From IMG/VR virus record IMGVR_UViG_2974543594_000001, positions 6,679-70,678 of that record: a stretch of 64,000 nucleotides of DNA; one strand, written 5' to 3'. Shown in pieces: positions 6,237 through 58,195 of this stretch. This stretch comes from a virus. A model generated the notes under the pieces. That model worked only from the letters and a program-made list of their open reading frames with translations, did no database searches and was not told where the DNA came from. How positions within the stretch are numbered: position 1 is the stretch's first letter; each line of letters begins with the position of its first letter. The translations under genes were made by a program, and so were the position numbers.

Positions 6237-6977
6237 ATGTCACTTGTATTTTATTCAGATAACGCTTTTTCTCAAATATCTGACCCGGACGAATATGTGC
6301 CTCCGTTTGATACTACGGGTTTAATGCGTGCGGAAATTTTCGCCCTTACGGGTATTGGGAGCAATCTGATGCCTGGCCAGCCAGACTCTGTTGTTATCGG
6401 TTCACCATCAATGGTTCCGGGCACCCCCTATGCGTCTTTCGCAAATAACGCAAGTATTGCTAATCTTGATTTAAGGATGCCTGACTCGGACCAACAAACA
6501 TGGCTTTTGGTGTGGAACCCGGCCGGCAGTTCACTCCAGCGTTTGATTATGTCGTCCTATGGTTCATCTGGAGGGAGCTCCCTTTTATTTGATGAATTCG
6601 GTAAATTAGCGGCCGCTATTGGTTATAAAACAATCAGCACCGGTGCAACTGCTGTCAAGTATGGAGTTCTATCACAAGCTCTGCCAGCAGGTGTTTCGTT
6701 TCTTTCACTGGTTATGAATGGAAAGACTTTTACAACCAAGAATCATACTTACAACAATGCCGCCACGGTTACATTGACTTCTGACCAGCAGCTTAACCCG
6801 GGTGTTTCCATTCACGTTGGTAAAGGTGCTACATCTTTATGGGGTCAGGCTGCGGCGACTAATCAAATTGCAGCCTATATGGTCTTTAACCGCGTATTGT
6901 CGGATTCTGAAATTGAAACAATTCGTCAGTATCTTTTAAGTAATATCCAGGGTGTCTATCCTGATATTACATTTTAA
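6237..6977 (+). CDS. tail fiber-associated protein (second receptor-binding or assembly component)
   Basis: 246 aa. Starts 3 nt after the tail spike stop. Same elevated GC as the spike C-terminus. Confidence 0.35.
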   Translation: MSLVFYSDNAFSQISDPDEYVPPFDTTGLMRAEIFALTGIGSNLMPGQPDSVVIGSPSMVPGTPYASFANNASIANLDLRMPDSDQQTWLLVWNPAGSSLQRLIMSSYGSSGGSSLLFDEFGKLAAAIGYKTISTGATAVKYGVLSQALPAGVSFLSLVMNGKTFTTKNHTYNNAATVTLTSDQQLNPGVSIHVGKGATSLWGQAAATNQIAAYMVFNRVLSDSEIETIRQYLLSNIQGVYPDITF

Positions 6978-50499: not shown

Positions 50500-51516
50500 T
50501 TAGAGCATACCTGCACCAGACTCGTTAGCGTATTTCATCACCCAATCCTGAACTTCAGGAACTTGAACAATGGCAGGCCGTGCTTTAACAGCACTACTTA
50601 AAGTTACGATTTGGAATTCAACCGGCAGTTTATTGATAAACTTCATCAACTGAGCACCGTTATTGGGGTCAATCTTAGAAGCAACATAACCAGCATATGC
50701 GTATTTAATGTCTGGTCTGTTCTCAATTTCAATGCCTTCTGGGTCTTTGAGAATTTCTTCGATAGTCTTAATCTTTCCATAGATTGAAGTATATTCGATG
50801 AACTCTCTCGCAGCCCCCGGACCAATTATCCCAGAGATAATGCCAAAGTCATTATCAATGGTGAGTTCTAAGCCATGAGAAACACGGCTGGTAAAATCCC
50901 AAGTACGAGGACATGGGAATGGGTTTTTAAGGTCCTGTGGGTTGAATTTATGGAACAGGTCTTCCTTAAACATTAAGAAAGATAGGATGCGATGGTCGAT
51001 GGCATTATCCAATGCCCAGATTTTCCAATCATCGAAGTTCGCTTCCAGTTCCAAATTGACGATACGTGACAGAGTTGCACTACTCATTGTAGTGGTGATA
51101 GCTCCATCAGTATCTTTGTTACCTGCCGCTGCAATATATACGTCAGGATGAAGTTTGGTTTGACCAACCATCCCATCCAATAACTTATACGCAGCAGCTT
51201 GAACAGCTTTTGGCGCTGTATTCATCTCATCGAGGAACAGCAGCCAGCCGTTATAACCTTCAGGTATTTTATCCCCTAAGATGGGGATATCTTTTGGTGG
51301 GTGATAAACCGAACGCCCGTTTTCAATATTAGGAAATCCGAGCAAGTCAGTTGGGTCACACTGACCTAAGCGTAGGTCAATAACCAGCAACTTAAACTCT
51401 TTGGCTATCTGACGAATAATCGCAGATTTACCAATGCCCGGACTACCTTTGATAAACGGGACCAATTTAGCGCCGAAAGCACGCTCTATGGCACGCTTAA
51501 TAGCTATTGGTCTCAT
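50500..51516 (-). CDS. MoxR/CbbQ-type AAA+ ATPase (AAA_5)
   Basis: 338 aa. Walker A is GSPGIGKS. Walker B is LLFLDEMN. Paired with the VWA protein. Confidence 0.65.
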   Translation of the reverse strand: MRPIAIKRAIERAFGAKLVPFIKGSPGIGKSAIIRQIAKEFKLLVIDLRLGQCDPTDLLGFPNIENGRSVYHPPKDIPILGDKIPEGYNGWLLFLDEMNTAPKAVQAAAYKLLDGMVGQTKLHPDVYIAAAGNKDTDGAITTTMSSATLSRIVNLELEANFDDWKIWALDNAIDHRILSFLMFKEDLFHKFNPQDLKNPFPCPRTWDFTSRVSHGLELTIDNDFGIISGIIGPGAAREFIEYTSIYGKIKTIEEILKDPEGIEIENRPDIKYAYAGYVASKIDPNNGAQLMKFINKLPVEFQIVTLSSAVKARPAIVQVPEVQDWVMKYANESGAGML

Positions 51517-52882: not shown

Positions 52883-53331
52883 TATTTAGTTCCTGTTGAA
52901 TTAAAGCCGCCTTCACCACGTTCAGTAGCTTCAAAAGAATCTACTACAACGAATTCAGGACGCTCTACAGGGACGATTACCATTTGGGCAATACGGTCAC
53001 CAGGGTTAACTGTGAAAGGCTCTGTAGAGCGATTCCACAAGCTCACCATAAGCTCTCCCTGATAGTCACTATCAATGAGGCCAGTGAGGTTACCTAACAC
53101 GATACCGTGTTTGTGACCTAAGCCAGAACGAGGAAGAATCATTGCTGCTTTTGATACATCTTCCAGATGAATAGCAATACCAGTTTCAACCAGCTTGGTT
53201 TCACCCGGAGCAAGAGTAAATGGCATAGCTACGTTAGCTCTTAAATCTACACCAGCAGAGCCATCAGTAGCTGGAGCTGGGATACACATTGAAGGGTTTT
53301 TAAAAACGAGAGTTCTTAGCTTAACTTTCAT
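52882..53331 (-). CDS. dut: dUTPase (trimeric)
   Basis: 149 aa with all five dUTPase motifs: [35 protein letters not shown]. Confidence 0.85.
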
Positions 53332-53380
53332 AAGAGTTCCTGTTTAACTTTGTAGAAATGCCATAGCATCCTATAGCATT

Positions 53381-53412
53381 TATAAAAAATTAAAATGCCC
53401 TCCGAAGAGGGC
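53381..53412 (-). terminator. intrinsic terminator after SPFH gene
   Basis: GCCCUC-uucg-GAGGGC then AUUUUAAUUUUUUAU on the minus strand. Confidence 0.6.
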
Positions 53413-53418
53413 ATAGAA

Positions 53419-54279
53419 TTACTTAAATGATACGAACGGGGTAACACTACCCTGCGTCATGTAAGTTGGCAGAGCACCGTTCCATTTCTCAATAGACCGA
53501 AGGTCTTTCATCTGAGGATAGCGGTTCAGGGCTTCACCTACTTTAGCGATAGCTTCTGCTTCAGCATTTGCCTTCATGATAACGGCATCAGCTTCTGCCT
53601 GTGCTTCTTTACGCTTAACGTCAGCCGCACCGTCAGCCTGAGCACGAGCCATGTTCGCTTCAGCTTCACGCTGCAATACTTCCTGAGTACGTTGCAGAGT
53701 GGTCTGGTTCGCAGTCACTTTCGCGTTGATAGAGGCGATAACGGTTTCCGGGTATTCCGGCTTCCCAACGTAGGACAGGCTGATGACGTCGATACCAATC
53801 GGAGCCATCTCTTCCTGCATTTCTTTCAGCGCAGCATCCAGAAGGTCAGCTTTACCGCCATCAATGAACTTGTCGGTAGTCATACGACTAGCCAGACGGT
53901 TCAGGCTATCAGCGATTTTCTGCTTCATGTCTGTATCGGTAATGTCATCGATACCCTTACGATATGTTTGGAAGACAGTAGTCACTTTGGTCGGATTGAC
54001 CTTGTAAGCCATACCGATGTGATAGCCGATGGTTGTACCATCCGACATTTGGAAGTTAAACGTATCGTCATACGTCTTCATCTGTTTGAAGGTCGGGAAC
54101 GTATAGACGGTTGTGTTCCAACCAGTCCAATAACGACCGACACCGACGACTTCGCCTACGCCTTTATCATCGCCCAGCTTGTTCACTTTAATACCGACGT
54201 GACCAGGTTCTACACGGTCACAGCCAGTTAAAGTTAATGCACCTAATACCAGTGCAACTGTCAAAAATACTTTTTTCAT
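53419..54279 (-). CDS. SPFH/band-7 (stomatin-prohibitin-flotillin-HflK/C) lipoprotein
   Basis: 286 aa. Signal peptide plus lipobox LTGC. SPFH core (VEPGHVGI...). C-terminal Ala/Glu-rich coiled coil. GC-rich island. Confidence 0.65.
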   Translation of the reverse strand: MKKVFLTVALVLGALTLTGCDRVEPGHVGIKVNKLGDDKGVGEVVGVGRYWTGWNTTVYTFPTFKQMKTYDDTFNFQMSDGTTIGYHIGMAYKVNPTKVTTVFQTYRKGIDDITDTDMKQKIADSLNRLASRMTTDKFIDGGKADLLDAALKEMQEEMAPIGIDVISLSYVGKPEYPETVIASINAKVTANQTTLQRTQEVLQREAEANMARAQADGAADVKRKEAQAEADAVIMKANAEAEAIAKVGEALNRYPQMKDLRSIEKWNGALPTYMTQGSVTPFVSFK

Positions 54280-54461
54280 GGGAAATATTTCCTAATCAGA
54301 GGTTTAAAAATACGGTACAGACATACCGGATAAAGGACTGTAATAGCGATACCGCTTAACACTGACATGGTATCTTTTGCAGAAATCATGGCTGGTAGTA
54401 CCCCAACATATAAAATAAGAGTAACGATTAGGGTGGCTACTAAATAGAAGGCAAGCTTCAT
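54276..54461 (-). CDS. small two-TM membrane protein
   Basis: 61 aa. Overlaps the SPFH start by 4 nt. Confidence 0.45.
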   Translation of the reverse strand: MKLAFYLVATLIVTLILYVGVLPAMISAKDTMSVLSGIAITVLYPVCLYRIFKPLIRKYFP

Positions 54462-54739
54462 TTATCGGTTCCTTTTGGATTGATAGCCGAATTTGGAAGA
54501 CAGCTGATACTGTAGCTATCACTGGTATAACTAATAATTTTTCGAGTTCCGGGTACATAAAGTACCCAGCAAGTTACTTCAGCATCATCATCATGAATCC
54601 GTTGAATATCGACTTTCTCGAACGTTGGATTGATACCAGAATCGCTGCCGTAGGCAGCCGATAAGAAACCAACCATAATTGCAGATAGAATTACGGTAAG
54701 CAGTGCTACATCGAGCACTACTCGTCTATAACTACGCAT
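54458..54739 (-). CDS. single-TM membrane protein with small beta-rich C-domain (possible NfeD-like partner of SPFH)
   Basis: ATG at 54739 (M15 of the track ORF). One TM helix, then about 60 aa soluble domain. The NfeD idea rests on layout only. Confidence 0.35.
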   Translation of the reverse strand: MRSYRRVVLDVALLTVILSAIMVGFLSAAYGSDSGINPTFEKVDIQRIHDDDAEVTCWVLYVPGTRKIISYTSDSYSISCLPNSAINPKGTDK

Positions 54740-54862
54740 ATGTAATCCTCTGGATGCAGAAGGACAGAGATATATCTCCATCCATCCCAGACATAAATCT
54801 TGATAGATTCATCAATGAAGACGTTATGAATGGGGTAGATATTTCCATCCCAGGCATACATC

Positions 54863-55210
54863 TTAGTGAAGGGTTTTAGGTTCTTCGCCCGAATAGGCTT
54901 CAACCTCACCTTGGTATTCGGCTGTGGTTGGGATTGTTGGGTCTGAGCATTCATACCAGTATCCATCTTCAGCTTTCCAGAAGAGCCATTTACCTCTAAG
55001 GTCTCTGGCAATAAGGTCGTGGTTAGGGGCATCACCCGGAATTGGGCTACGGAATGTAACATCAGCGATATCGACTAACTCATCGACACCTGATTGTTCA
55101 TGCTGTACCCAAACCTTGTCGTAATAGAATGCTTTGATAATTACGTTAGACCCATGACCTTCAGGGTCTTTGATAAATTGCATTCTCATCATTAAACCGA
55201 TAGTAATCAT
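54863..55210 (-). CDS. hypothetical protein
   Basis: 115 aa ORF. Confidence 0.4.
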   Translation of the reverse strand: MITIGLMMRMQFIKDPEGHGSNVIIKAFYYDKVWVQHEQSGVDELVDIADVTFRSPIPGDAPNHDLIARDLRGKWLFWKAEDGYWYECSDPTIPTTAEYQGEVEAYSGEEPKTLH

Positions 55211-57043: not shown

Positions 57044-57272
57044 CAGGAATGATTCCCAGCAGCCTCCCTGCTGAGTCCAGACCAAAGATGGTCTGTTTAA
57101 TTTCATCCTCTGACATATAGAACAATGCACATTTAGTTTTGTCGTGATTCTCACCACAGAACTTTTCACATGCAGGATGGGTACTACAGAAGTGAGTTTC
57201 CAACTCATCCGGGATATCACGTAACAACAGAGTGATTTTGATGAGTTGTTCTGGTTTAGATAATTCAGCCAT
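57036..57272 (-). CDS. small Cys-rich protein, distant member of the same family
   Basis: 78 aa. ELSKPEQLIKITLLL N-terminus and a C-x5-C-x3-C...C pattern. Confidence 0.4.
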   Translation of the reverse strand: MAELSKPEQLIKITLLLRDIPDELETHFCSTHPACEKFCGENHDKTKCALFYMSEDEIKQTIFGLDSAGRLLGIIPDE

Positions 57273-58195
57273 TATTCCTCCACTGGAACGAGTTCTTTAT
57301 CAGCCAACTGAAGTATGGCTTTACGATAAGTATTACCCTGATAGGACACATGGTACCCCTGGCAATAAGTACGACCACGTTTGTCATACTTGTGAGTCAG
57401 ATAAAACCTGTTTCCTTCGTTAATTAACATGGCAAATACCTTCATGGATTCACGTTCCATTTTCAGGAACGATTCCACTCGTGCTTGCCATTCATCATGA
57501 GTTTCCTCACTCTTTGGTGAGTCCAGATGCTTACGGTTATCACGAATATTTCGGATAACACGGTCATCAAGTGCAAACGCTACTGAATTAAATCTGTTGA
57601 TATTATCCAGACAGATATCCAGTTCATGATGATTGTTCTTCAGGATTAGAGAATCCCATTCAATAGATAGATACCCACTGCCTTTGTTATCTTTAACAGG
57701 TCTTGGTGGGACTACCATTGGAGGAAGATACTGATACTGATTGATGAGTTTGAGAGTTTTTGGTTCAAGCTGGATACGACTAACCAATTCCATTGAACCA
57801 GTGTTACTGAGCTTGGCTGGAATTACATCTACCAAATCTACGATTGCTGCTAAACCAATAAGTTCTCCAGCAGTTCGTATGGCTTCTTTCTGAGACATGT
57901 TTTTAATCATGCCTGAAACCATACCAACTATCTGGGTGTACTTGGCTACACCGAACTGAGCTAATGAACCAGCTACATCGATATAGAAATCTTCAAATAT
58001 ATCTGAATCCAGAATGGCTAATCGACGGTTCTTACTTTCAAAGTAATCACCCATCTGCCATTCTTTGGCTGCCTCTACTGCCTTATTAACTAGCGCCATA
58101 ATATCTGGTGACTCTTTTAATTCTTTTCTTATGAGGTCACGAGCTTGATGTTTTGAATACATAGTTTCAATGAGGAGTTGAGTGTCATAATTCAT
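57272..58195 (-). CDS. phage RNAPII small subunit (N4 gp15-like; N-terminal half of a T7-like RNAP)
   Basis: 307 aa. YDKRGRTYCQGYHVSYQGNTYRK matches the T7 RNAP DxRGR...PQGND region. Confidence 0.75.
   Translation of the reverse strand: MNYDTQLLIETMYSKHQARDLIRKELKESPDIMALVNKAVEAAKEWQMGDYFESKNRRLAILDSDIFEDFYIDVAGSLAQFGVAKYTQIVGMVSGMIKNMSQKEAIRTAGELIGLAAIVDLVDVIPAKLSNTGSMELVSRIQLEPKTLKLINQYQYLPPMVVPPRPVKDNKGSGYLSIEWDSLILKNNHHELDICLDNINRFNSVAFALDDRVIRNIRDNRKHLDSPKSEETHDEWQARVESFLKMERESMKVFAMLINEGNRFYLTHKYDKRGRTYCQGYHVSYQGNTYRKAILQLADKELVPVEE

Follow-up and report, generated by a model that had tools for sequence, protein, structure and literature searches.

A mobile hairpin–SPFH lipoprotein gene pair of Klebsiella phage KpCHEMY26, homologous to N4 gp19-gp20, as a candidate split HflK/C-like cage

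The window analysed here is a stretch of viral DNA of 64,000 nucleotides (IMG/VR record IMGVR_UViG_2974543594_000001, positions 6,679 to 70,678). It carries on its minus strand two overlapping genes, encoding a 61-amino-acid (aa) two-helix membrane hairpin (54276..54461) and a 286-aa lipoprotein of the SPFH/Band-7 class (53419..54279). The pair is the homologue of gp19-gp20 of phage N4 as it occurs in Klebsiella phage KpCHEMY26. We propose that it is a mobile two-gene cassette whose products would form a split HflK/C-like periplasmic cage on the inner membrane during lytic growth, a reading to which we give about an even chance. Judged by sequence comparison, the conserved partner of the SPFH protein appears to be the hairpin and not the 93-aa protein encoded just upstream (54458..54739), so that the unit consists of two genes. 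The cassette is not a new object; it belongs to an already annotated, large, widespread and uncharacterised phage family, and the original prediction for this region, an SPFH lipoprotein operon read from the letters alone, had missed that the pair is the annotated N4 homologue. All features described below lie on the minus strand and are given in window positions.

Bases 53300-54900 of the window are 100% identical to phage KpCHEMY26 (MN163281/NC_049467; Schitoviridae, Humphriesvirinae, Pylasvirus), 93.8% identical to phage Pylas and 82.7% identical to MY01. Three open reading frames (ORFs) follow one another in the order 93-aa, 61-aa, 286-aa, with an ATGA overlap at each of the two junctions and a terminator at the end. 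In GenBank the 286-aa gene is labelled 'SPFH serine protease' or 'lipoprotein', the 61-aa gene 'membrane protein, 2 TMDs N in C in' and the 93-aa gene 'hypothetical protein, TMD N in C out'.

The 286-aa protein, which belongs to PHROG 200, begins with MKKVFLTVALVLGALTLTGC. Its lipoprotein signal (54220..54279; MKK-VFLTVALVLGALT-LTGC) fits a basic n-region, a hydrophobic h-region and a lipobox of the form [LVI][ASTVI][GAS]C, here L17-T-G-C20 with Asp21 at position +2. Both Cys20 and G19 are invariant among 26 aligned homologues, and a lipobox is present in 113 of 120 close homologues, 107 of which carry Asp at +2 (+2/+3 being 'DR' in 104 and 'DN' in 3). In E. coli, Asp at +2 is the rule for retention of a lipoprotein in the inner membrane. 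These features point to a protein that would be lipidated and kept in the inner membrane, with its SPFH domain in the periplasm.

Residues 22-213 (53641..54216) match Pfam Band_7 (PF01145; E=2.8e-29, 102.8 bits against a cut-off of 23.6), and the protein matches phrog_200 ('lipoprotein') with E=4.1e-99. The AlphaFold 2 (AF2) model of the monomer, with a predicted local distance difference test (pLDDT) score of 77, consists of a beta-rich SPFH core with helices, one long Ala/Glu-rich helix of 76 residues (178-253; 53521..53748), which is predicted to form the coiled coil of a cage wall, and a poorly defined tail. Foldseek aligned this model over its full length with SPFH protomers (E down to 7.5e-14, alignments of 265-316 columns), of which HflC, erlin, prohibitin and HflK came top, followed by stomatin, QmcA, flotillin and the vault protein. 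By sequence, the relatives of solved structure are HflK entries only (E ~3e-4). The 286-aa lipoprotein with an LTGC lipobox, an SPFH core and an HflK/C-like coiled coil, as first proposed from the letters, is thus borne out by sequence, Pfam, AF2 and Foldseek alike, and the SPFH fold on which that proposal depended is present. The 'serine protease' label, found also in several other phage records, was rejected: only Band_7 is detectable and no protease domain. The label was probably carried over from stomatin/NfeD-protease operons.

Two further sequence features fit the architecture of a cage. Near the C-terminus lies the signature K265-W-N-G-A-L-P-T272 (53464..53487; K-W-[ND]-G-x-L-P), and the longer motif K-W-[ND]-G-x-L-P...P-F is kept from the Staphylococcus Kayvirus to the Caulobacter phiCbK homologues. 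W266, G268 and P271 are invariant in the 26 aligned homologues, and W-x-G-x-x-P occurs in 101 of 114 representatives. Between lineages the length of the coiled coil changes in steps of exactly 11 residues, which occur at three positions (+11 in Pylasvirus, +11 in GAP31, -11 in phiE125, Kayvirus and phiCbK); in KpCHEMY26 an insertion makes it 11 residues longer than in the 275-aa prophage alleles and in N4 gp20. Such steps suggest that the helical register, three turns at a time, is preserved; together with the family-wide C-terminal motif, they are consistent with a helical cage wall that has a closing cap.

The 61-aa protein just upstream was correctly described at the outset as a two-transmembrane (two-TM) protein with a 4-nucleotide overlap: the ORF, the ATGA junction, through which it is translationally coupled to the SPFH gene, and two hydrophobic helices are all there, and the protein matches phrog_1130 (PHROG 1130) with E=2.8e-15. 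Its inter-helix motif, P23-A-M-I-S-A-K-D-T31 (54369..54395), is predicted to lie in or near a short periplasmic turn. A homologous-protein search with this short query returned only four close relatives. A search of phages with it found matches directly 5' of an SPFH gene in KpCHEMY26, Pylas, MY01, Erwinia phage S6, SonariX, phiP27 and Stx2 phages. When the neighbourhood of the SPFH gene was inspected, a hairpin gene lay upstream in 17 of the 19 phage or prophage lineages checked. It adjoins the SPFH gene, mostly with an overlap, in KpCHEMY26, MY01, E. coli and Klebsiella prophages, phiP27, SSU5, N4, S6, PAN70, Piffle, phiE125, Maja and the crAss-like phage cr126_1, and one or two genes away in GAP31, GAP32, Clew-1 and vEam_W_28. 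The exceptions are phiCbK, which has a three-TM protein there, and Kayvirus, with the one-TM MbpV.

In the distant phages the two-helix protein is 49-84 aa long and carries between its helices the pattern P-x-[LMF]-[IVMF]-[SN]-x-x-[DSN]-[TSD]...G. This motif was found in SSU5, N4, S6, GAP31, PAN70, Piffle, phiE125, Maja, Clew-1 and cr126_1; it is less clear in vEam_W_28, and the nearby two-TM protein of GAP32 does not show it clearly. Altogether the motif recurs across 16 lineages and in fusion proteins, and P23, S27 and G37 are invariant in the hairpin alignment. Seen from the hairpin side, all 38 IMG/VR loci found through a single prophage hairpin, and hence close relatives only, have an SPFH gene directly downstream, which in five is a disrupted or truncated remnant. 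Behind an intact hairpin, the SPFH gene is broken by an insertion in locus L032, reduced to an N-terminal fragment in L055 and L026, and reduced to its last 61 codons in L058 and L059; the cassette therefore decays in some prophages.

The two proteins also occur fused. In P0040 and at least 17 of the 150 best-scoring representatives at 50% identity, a single ORF encodes the hairpin, a linker, a hydrophobic segment with a lipobox and the SPFH domain. A regular expression recovered the inter-helix motif in 12 of these at least 17 fusions, and inspection adds several that it missed. Gene fusions are classical evidence for shared function. A fusion is topologically possible only with an N-in/C-in hairpin and with the SPFH domain outside the same membrane, which agrees with the basic residues at both hairpin termini; these residues would place the inter-helix motif in the periplasm. 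The internal lipobox cysteine is retained in fusions such as P0040, P0153, P0162, P0168, P0182, P0185 and others, and possible processing there would split the fusion post-translationally.

Some gene calls at these loci appear to need correction. The hairpin ORF of phiP27 and the Stx2 phages is unannotated (L013:2316-2504 in phiP27). The start of Piffle gene 042 seems to be placed too far downstream, with loss of the first TM helix, the true ORF being longer (L019, from ~1254). The SPFH gene of Clew-1 has been called from an internal Met, which removes the signal peptide and the lipobox ITAGC (L021, from ~1440).

Among known systems the nearest is N4 itself. Its gp19 (68 aa) and gp20 (278 aa) have the same order, overlap and middle-block position after RNAPII as the KpCHEMY26 pair. 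N4 gp20 shares the lipobox, SPFH domain, coiled coil and C-terminal K-W-N-G-x-L-P with the 286-aa protein at 57% identity, and gp19 shares the hairpin motif at 28% identity to the 61-aa protein. The KpCHEMY26 SPFH protein is nevertheless nearer to prophage alleles (72-75%) than to N4, and has Asp at +2 where N4 has Tyr. Of the cellular systems, the E. coli HflK/HflC-FtsH cage (PDB 7vhp, 7vhq, 7wi3, 9cz2) is the best match in both sequence and fold among solved structures. In HflK/HflC the SPFH domain and long helix extend into the periplasm from the inner membrane, and the same is predicted for the 286-aa protein from its lipobox, its +2 Asp and the fusion topology. The phage protein differs in being shorter, in having a lipid anchor instead of an N-terminal TM helix, in being encoded by one SPFH gene and not a K/C pair, and in having a separate hairpin partner.

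From this comparison a mechanism can be proposed. The 61-aa protein would insert into the inner membrane as an N-in/C-in helical hairpin, while the 286-aa protein would be exported, lipidated at Cys20 and retained in the inner membrane by its +2 Asp, so that the SPFH domain, the long helix and the C-terminal K-W-N-G-x-L-P segment face the periplasm. The SPFH protein would then oligomerise, as HflK/C, prohibitin and erlin do, to a ring or cage that covers part of the inner membrane. The transmembrane part that HflK/C carry in-chain would come from the hairpin, coupled 1:1, giving a 'split' HflK/C-like cage. The cassette would be made from the RNAPII-transcribed middle block in KpCHEMY26, and from a pL-like early-left operon in prophages.

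Several points weigh against this proposal. The structural model is that of a monomer, with low confidence in the C-terminal 30 residues, and both oligomerisation and contact with the hairpin are argued by analogy only. The fusion ORFs were called automatically, and two separate products might be made from them. In Staphylococcus the pair has a different, one-TM upstream protein, MbpV. As to the anchor, homologues outside the enterics have Ser at +2, the Piffle homologue was named an outer-membrane lipoprotein by its depositors, and the vesicle location of PM0222, a prophage-encoded protein taken up below whose likeness is by description only, also points to the outer membrane. Against the HflK/HflC equivalog models (NCBIfam TIGR01932 and TIGR01933) the 286-aa protein scores 29.8 versus 134.4 bits and 27.6 versus 159.4 bits, far under the cut-offs, so that nothing specific ties it to FtsH. 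Finally, no experiments on any member of the PHROG 200-type family were found in the searchable literature; the authors of genome notes only speculate, on lysis-lysogeny control through HflKC, on adsorption or entry, or on Sec export.

What such a cage would do can be suggested only with low confidence. It could fence off a conserved component of the host inner membrane, for which the quality-control protease FtsH is the best candidate, because SPFH cages recurrently pair with membrane proteases, HflK/C are the closest relatives and the host range is very broad. Fencing off FtsH would change membrane-protein turnover in the infected cell. By analogy with these cellular cages, we regard the compartmentalisation of a universal inner-membrane machine, FtsH foremost, as possible but short of probable. 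In its widest form, the proposal would be of a phage-borne split SPFH cage in which a new class of partner replaces NfeD or the in-chain TM helix, and which walls off a universal machine of the inner membrane, such as FtsH, or blocks the entry of competitors. This would cover phages of Gram-negative, Bacteroidota and possibly Gram-positive hosts in lytic growth, and we put it forward tentatively.

SPFH cages (HflK/C, prohibitin, stomatin, flotillin, erlin) are structurally understood, and their biological logic is debated. The present analysis adds the functional unit of hairpin plus SPFH protein, often fused, together with its predicted topology and mobility. If the proposal is true, an SPFH cage would for the first time have a viral function, and about one complete E. 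coli genome in seven would encode it. A minimal cage with an infection phenotype would be a useful model for SPFH proteins and possibly a new device of host takeover or exclusion. The family is common and structurally tractable, and holds little surprise for the specialist. With regard to KpCHEMY26 as a therapeutic candidate, the cassette is an accessory gene set shared with prophages and not a toxin or resistance gene.

The distribution of the family bears on both its mobility and its function. By tblastn, 522 phage records were found to encode the SPFH protein. Among them are several genera of N4-like phages, phiP27 and Stx2 phages, SSU5-type phage-plasmids, Vequintavirinae, Ounavirinae, jumbo phages, phages of Pseudomonas, Burkholderia, Stenotrophomonas and Caulobacter, crAss-like phages and Staphylococcus Kayvirus (MbpS). 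When 1.84 billion representatives were scanned with the SPFH family, 182 clusters passed a limit of E<=1e-30 and 760 one of E<=1e-10. SPFH copies of 275 aa, 70-74% identical, are numerous in Enterobacteriaceae genomes, and a sensitive search located phiP27-type cassette DNA in 737 of 5,426 complete E. coli genomes, divided roughly equally between chromosomes and plasmids. Unlike that search, megablast with the E. coli prophage cassette (L011:5813-6828) gave no match in complete E. coli genomes, which may be an effect of tool or filter. The cassette is patchy among N4-like phages and is missing from the relatives Pollock and FSL SP-058. It thus appears, from these sequence comparisons, to behave as a mobile accessory module that is exchanged among virulent phages, temperate phages and phage-plasmids.

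An accessory module of this kind could also serve superinfection exclusion. Hairpin and periplasmic lipoprotein would then block the genome entry of later phages at the inner membrane, the SPFH ring clustering or capping a component needed for DNA translocation, as may be compared with T4 Imm, Ltp, Llp and Cor. T4 Imm is a small two-TM inner-membrane protein, and most phage early lipoproteins of known function are exclusion factors, which counts for this explanation. So do the accessory, patchy and early character of the cassette, its exchange between unrelated phages, its envelope location, the annotation of the N4 neighbour gp18 as related to superinfection exclusion, and the presence of other exported proteins in the same slot of related phages. 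T5 Llp, Cor, TP-J34 Ltp and T4 Imm are likewise accessory, early and located in the envelope. They have, however, no sequence or fold relation to the cassette and act as monomers on a specific receptor or injection apparatus, and no exclusion phenotype has been reported for the phage SPFH family. None of the three proteins matched a PADLOC-DB model at E<=0.01. The hosts and entry routes of the carriers are very different (Staphylococcus, Bacteroides, Caulobacter), which argues for a universal target rather than a specific receptor, and the position of the cassette in prophages is one that would be expected to be repressed in the lysogen. Exclusion is on balance an unlikely explanation, though one to be taken seriously and ranked only slightly behind the compartmentalisation of FtsH or a like machine.

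That position was examined in several genomes. In KpCHEMY26 and N4 the cassette stands in the block of middle genes between RNAPII and the genes for nucleotide metabolism and replication. The E. coli and Klebsiella prophages and phiP27 have it between the S24 repressor gene, which is upstream on the same strand, and xis/int, a place that by analogy with lambda would be the early-left (pL) operon. Middle-block and pL-like positions together suggest expression during lytic development rather than in the lysogen.

A part in lysis has to be considered as well, since the original prediction had linked the SPFH protein to the lysis inhibition of N4-like phages. In this version the cage would reinforce or organise the inner membrane as an envelope stabiliser while a productive infection runs its long course, and would delay premature holin triggering, or it would aid export of lysis proteins, which is the Sec idea advanced for MbpS of Kayvirus. 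SPFH proteins are general membrane organisers, and N4 both shows lysis inhibition and carries the cassette. In Kayvirus the MbpV-MbpS genes lie between the endolysin gene and tgl, and their authors speculate on a role in Sec-dependent export. MbpS is a distant member of the same SPFH family (23-26% identity, C-terminal W-N-G-K-x-P), and its gene is overlapped by that of a small membrane protein upstream. It differs in its TM-helix anchor, its Gram-positive host and its place beside the lysis genes, and MbpV has one TM and a charged tail. In N4-like phages and prophages, on the other hand, the cassette is not near the lysis genes, and it is missing from close relatives. Among more than 60 selected spontaneous rapid-lysis mutants of N4, the classes that recurred affect gp61, gp63, gp50 and the terminal repeat, every other change turned up only once, and the text nowhere mentions gp19 or gp20 (bioRxiv 10.1101/2025.11.12.688109). 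A non-essential gene of 837 base pairs would have been a large target if its loss abolished lysis inhibition. The mutant classes and the patchy occurrence among N4-like phages both disfavour the link, and a lysis-timing role is rather improbable.

The abundance of the cassette in Enterobacteriaceae prophages and plasmids raises the further question of lysogenic conversion, in which the product would be a virulence lipoprotein of the outer membrane or of vesicles that alters the host surface or the interaction with the animal host, and would be a mere passenger in lytic phages. There is a parallel, set beside the PHROG 200 family by description only, in PM0222 (OAZ06802.1) of Pasteurella multocida, a prophage-encoded HflK/C-like protein found in cells and outer-membrane vesicles. 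It gives TLR1/2 signalling and affects capsule, adhesion and virulence in P. multocida. Many strictly virulent phages, jumbo and crAss-like phages included, have kept cassette and hairpin although lysogenic conversion is irrelevant to them, and the +2 Asp predicts inner-membrane retention in enterics. Even with TLR1/2 signalling being typical of triacylated lipoproteins, conversion is a very improbable account of the family.

The remaining alternative concerns the 93-aa gene, whose product had been taken for an NfeD-like partner of the SPFH protein. The gene is annotated from the ATG at 54739, a longer reading of 107 aa from 54781 being possible, and is preceded by a Shine-Dalgarno sequence, GAGGA (54746..54750). 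In favour of a three-gene SPFH operon are the 4-nucleotide overlaps, the one shared terminator, the soluble part of the 93-aa protein, which would share the periplasmic side with the SPFH domain, and beta strands predicted in it at low confidence. SPFH-NfeD operons (E. coli QmcA-YbbJ, PDB 8z5g; B. subtilis YuaF-FloT; P. horikoshii PH1510/PH1511) likewise have a small membrane-protein gene upstream that co-evolves with the SPFH gene. In those operons, however, NfeD has three hydrophobic stretches and an OB domain and the SPFH protein faces the cytoplasm, whereas the phage pair would combine a two-helix hairpin with a periplasm-facing SPFH protein. NfeD proteins are defined by a length of 140-150 aa, three hydrophobic stretches and an all-beta OB domain (PMC2636767), and NfeD partners have been described only for the cytoplasm-facing SPFH1/2/5 groups and not for the periplasm-facing HflK/C type. 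Set against this definition, the 93-aa protein has one hydrophobic stretch, and the 61-aa protein has two helices without a soluble domain.

Searches gave no support to an NfeD assignment. Pfam showed no NfeD signature in either small protein, and no Pfam family of any kind, NfeD included, matched the 93-aa protein even at E<=10. The AF2 model of the 93-aa protein is of low quality (pLDDT 62, predicted template modelling score 0.26), and with it Foldseek returned nothing below E=1.7 and no NfeD entry. The initial description as a single-TM protein with a small beta-rich domain therefore stands for the one hydrophobic N-terminal stretch, while the beta content is a low-confidence prediction of this model. 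Homologues vary in the N-terminal stretch, which looks like a signal peptide or signal anchor, and share a highly conserved domain of ~60 aa with invariant Cys57 and Cys80 and an invariant H-D-D-D run. These features suggest an exported, disulfide-bonded periplasmic mini-protein.

The distribution of the two elements separates them. The 93-aa family comprises 24 clusters, on phage-sized contigs of up to ~72 kb or short fragments, plus 19 phage records, and its homologues are confined to Humphriesvirinae-type N4-like phages. The Pollock homologue, gp22, lies by itself immediately before the dUTPase gene, with an annotated terminator on either side and no SPFH gene. FSL SP-058, which likewise has no SPFH gene, encodes a 131-aa membrane protein and a collagen-repeat protein after its homologue, and in MY01 the homologue and the cassette have a 133-aa gene between them. 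The cassette in turn occurs without the 93-aa gene in N4, the prophages, SSU5 and all other groups checked outside Pylasvirus. The NfeD reading of the 93-aa protein was rejected on Pfam, AF2 with Foldseek, architecture and distribution together, and with each element found without the other, the three-gene operon is barely credible. The comparisons indicate that the 93-aa gene is a Humphriesvirinae backbone neighbour unrelated to the SPFH cassette.

The predicted membrane proteins of 131-133 aa in MY01 (L005:3279-3680) and FSL SP-058 (L003:3725-4120) are 68% identical; their gene directly follows the 93-aa gene in these two phages and is absent from KpCHEMY26 and Pylas. A 133/141-aa gene found 5' of the hairpin in prophages is unrelated to it, and a three-gene prophage cassette was accordingly rejected.

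In Schitoviridae the slot before the dUTPase gene is variable, and its occupants are exported proteins: Pollock has no additional gene there, SP-058 has a membrane protein and a YadA-like collagen-repeat protein, and S6 has the hairpin, SPFH protein and an 'adhesin'. The secreted proteins in the slot of SP-058 (L003:4151-5140) and Erwinia phage S6 (L066:3360-4499) are similar over their last ~50 residues and are annotated as 'tail protein' in one record and 'adhesin' in the other. The SP-058 protein has long collagen-like G-x-x repeats and a C-terminal segment resembling the anchor of trimeric autotransporters (YadA-like). Judged by these sequence features, the SP-058/S6 protein is one that a virulent phage would make for the outer membrane. 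Immediately 5' of gp19-gp20, N4 has gp18 (L017:2669-2983), annotated 'superinfection exclusion, similar to P22 gp17', which has no counterpart at that position in KpCHEMY26.

The intrinsic terminator (53385..53414) begins 5 nucleotides past the SPFH stop codon and is a AUGCCCUC-UUCG-GAGGGCAU stem-loop with a U-rich tail. Its 8-base-pair GC-rich stem, UUCG loop and T tract (53414-53385) fold at -14.5 kcal/mol, with z=-3.59 against shuffles, which agrees with the strong terminator proposed for this operon from the start. The GC-rich island proposed alongside it proved to be a modest one: guanine-plus-cytosine (GC) content is indeed raised in the SPFH gene, to 0.48 with a peak of 0.53, against 0.416 for the window. 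At third codon positions (GC3) the gene has 0.49, compared with 0.366 +/- 0.066.

The raised GC content has two causes. One is the Ala/Glu codons of the coiled coil, where GC at first codon positions is 0.75, and the other is a prophage-like central segment. In the centre of the gene GC3 is 0.5-0.73, and in the prophage alleles it is 0.59-0.63. The centre (53700-54190, about residues 31-195) has a nucleotide identity of 69-79% to the congener MY01 and of 73-82% to the prophage alleles; the 5' and 3' ends of the gene are 86-92% identical to MY01 and have low GC3. This pattern suggests a mosaic gene produced by recombination, or allele exchange, between virulent-phage and enterobacterial prophage-type alleles.

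A scan for promoters of the sigma-70 type, which does not cover N4-type middle promoters, gave 4 sites against 6.5 expected, none of them 5' of the cassette on the coding strand. The terminator that is annotated in Pollock between the upstream gene and the 93-aa gene was not found here, where there is only a structured intergenic region. This spacer of 123 nucleotides (54740-54862) contains an imperfect direct repeat, TGCCTGGGATGGAAATATCT / TGTCTGGGATGGATGGAGATATATCT, and a 9-base-pair hairpin in the GGAGAGAU-AUAU-AUCUCUGUCC region. The spacer folds more stably than shuffles (z=-2.5) and has no T tract; the phage RNA polymerase could use it as a regulatory or promoter element. Elsewhere in the window, a few genes downstream of the dUTPase gene, the depositors describe an NTPase/ATPase gene at ~50500-51516 (record positions 57178-58194) as 'split by an HNH intron'.

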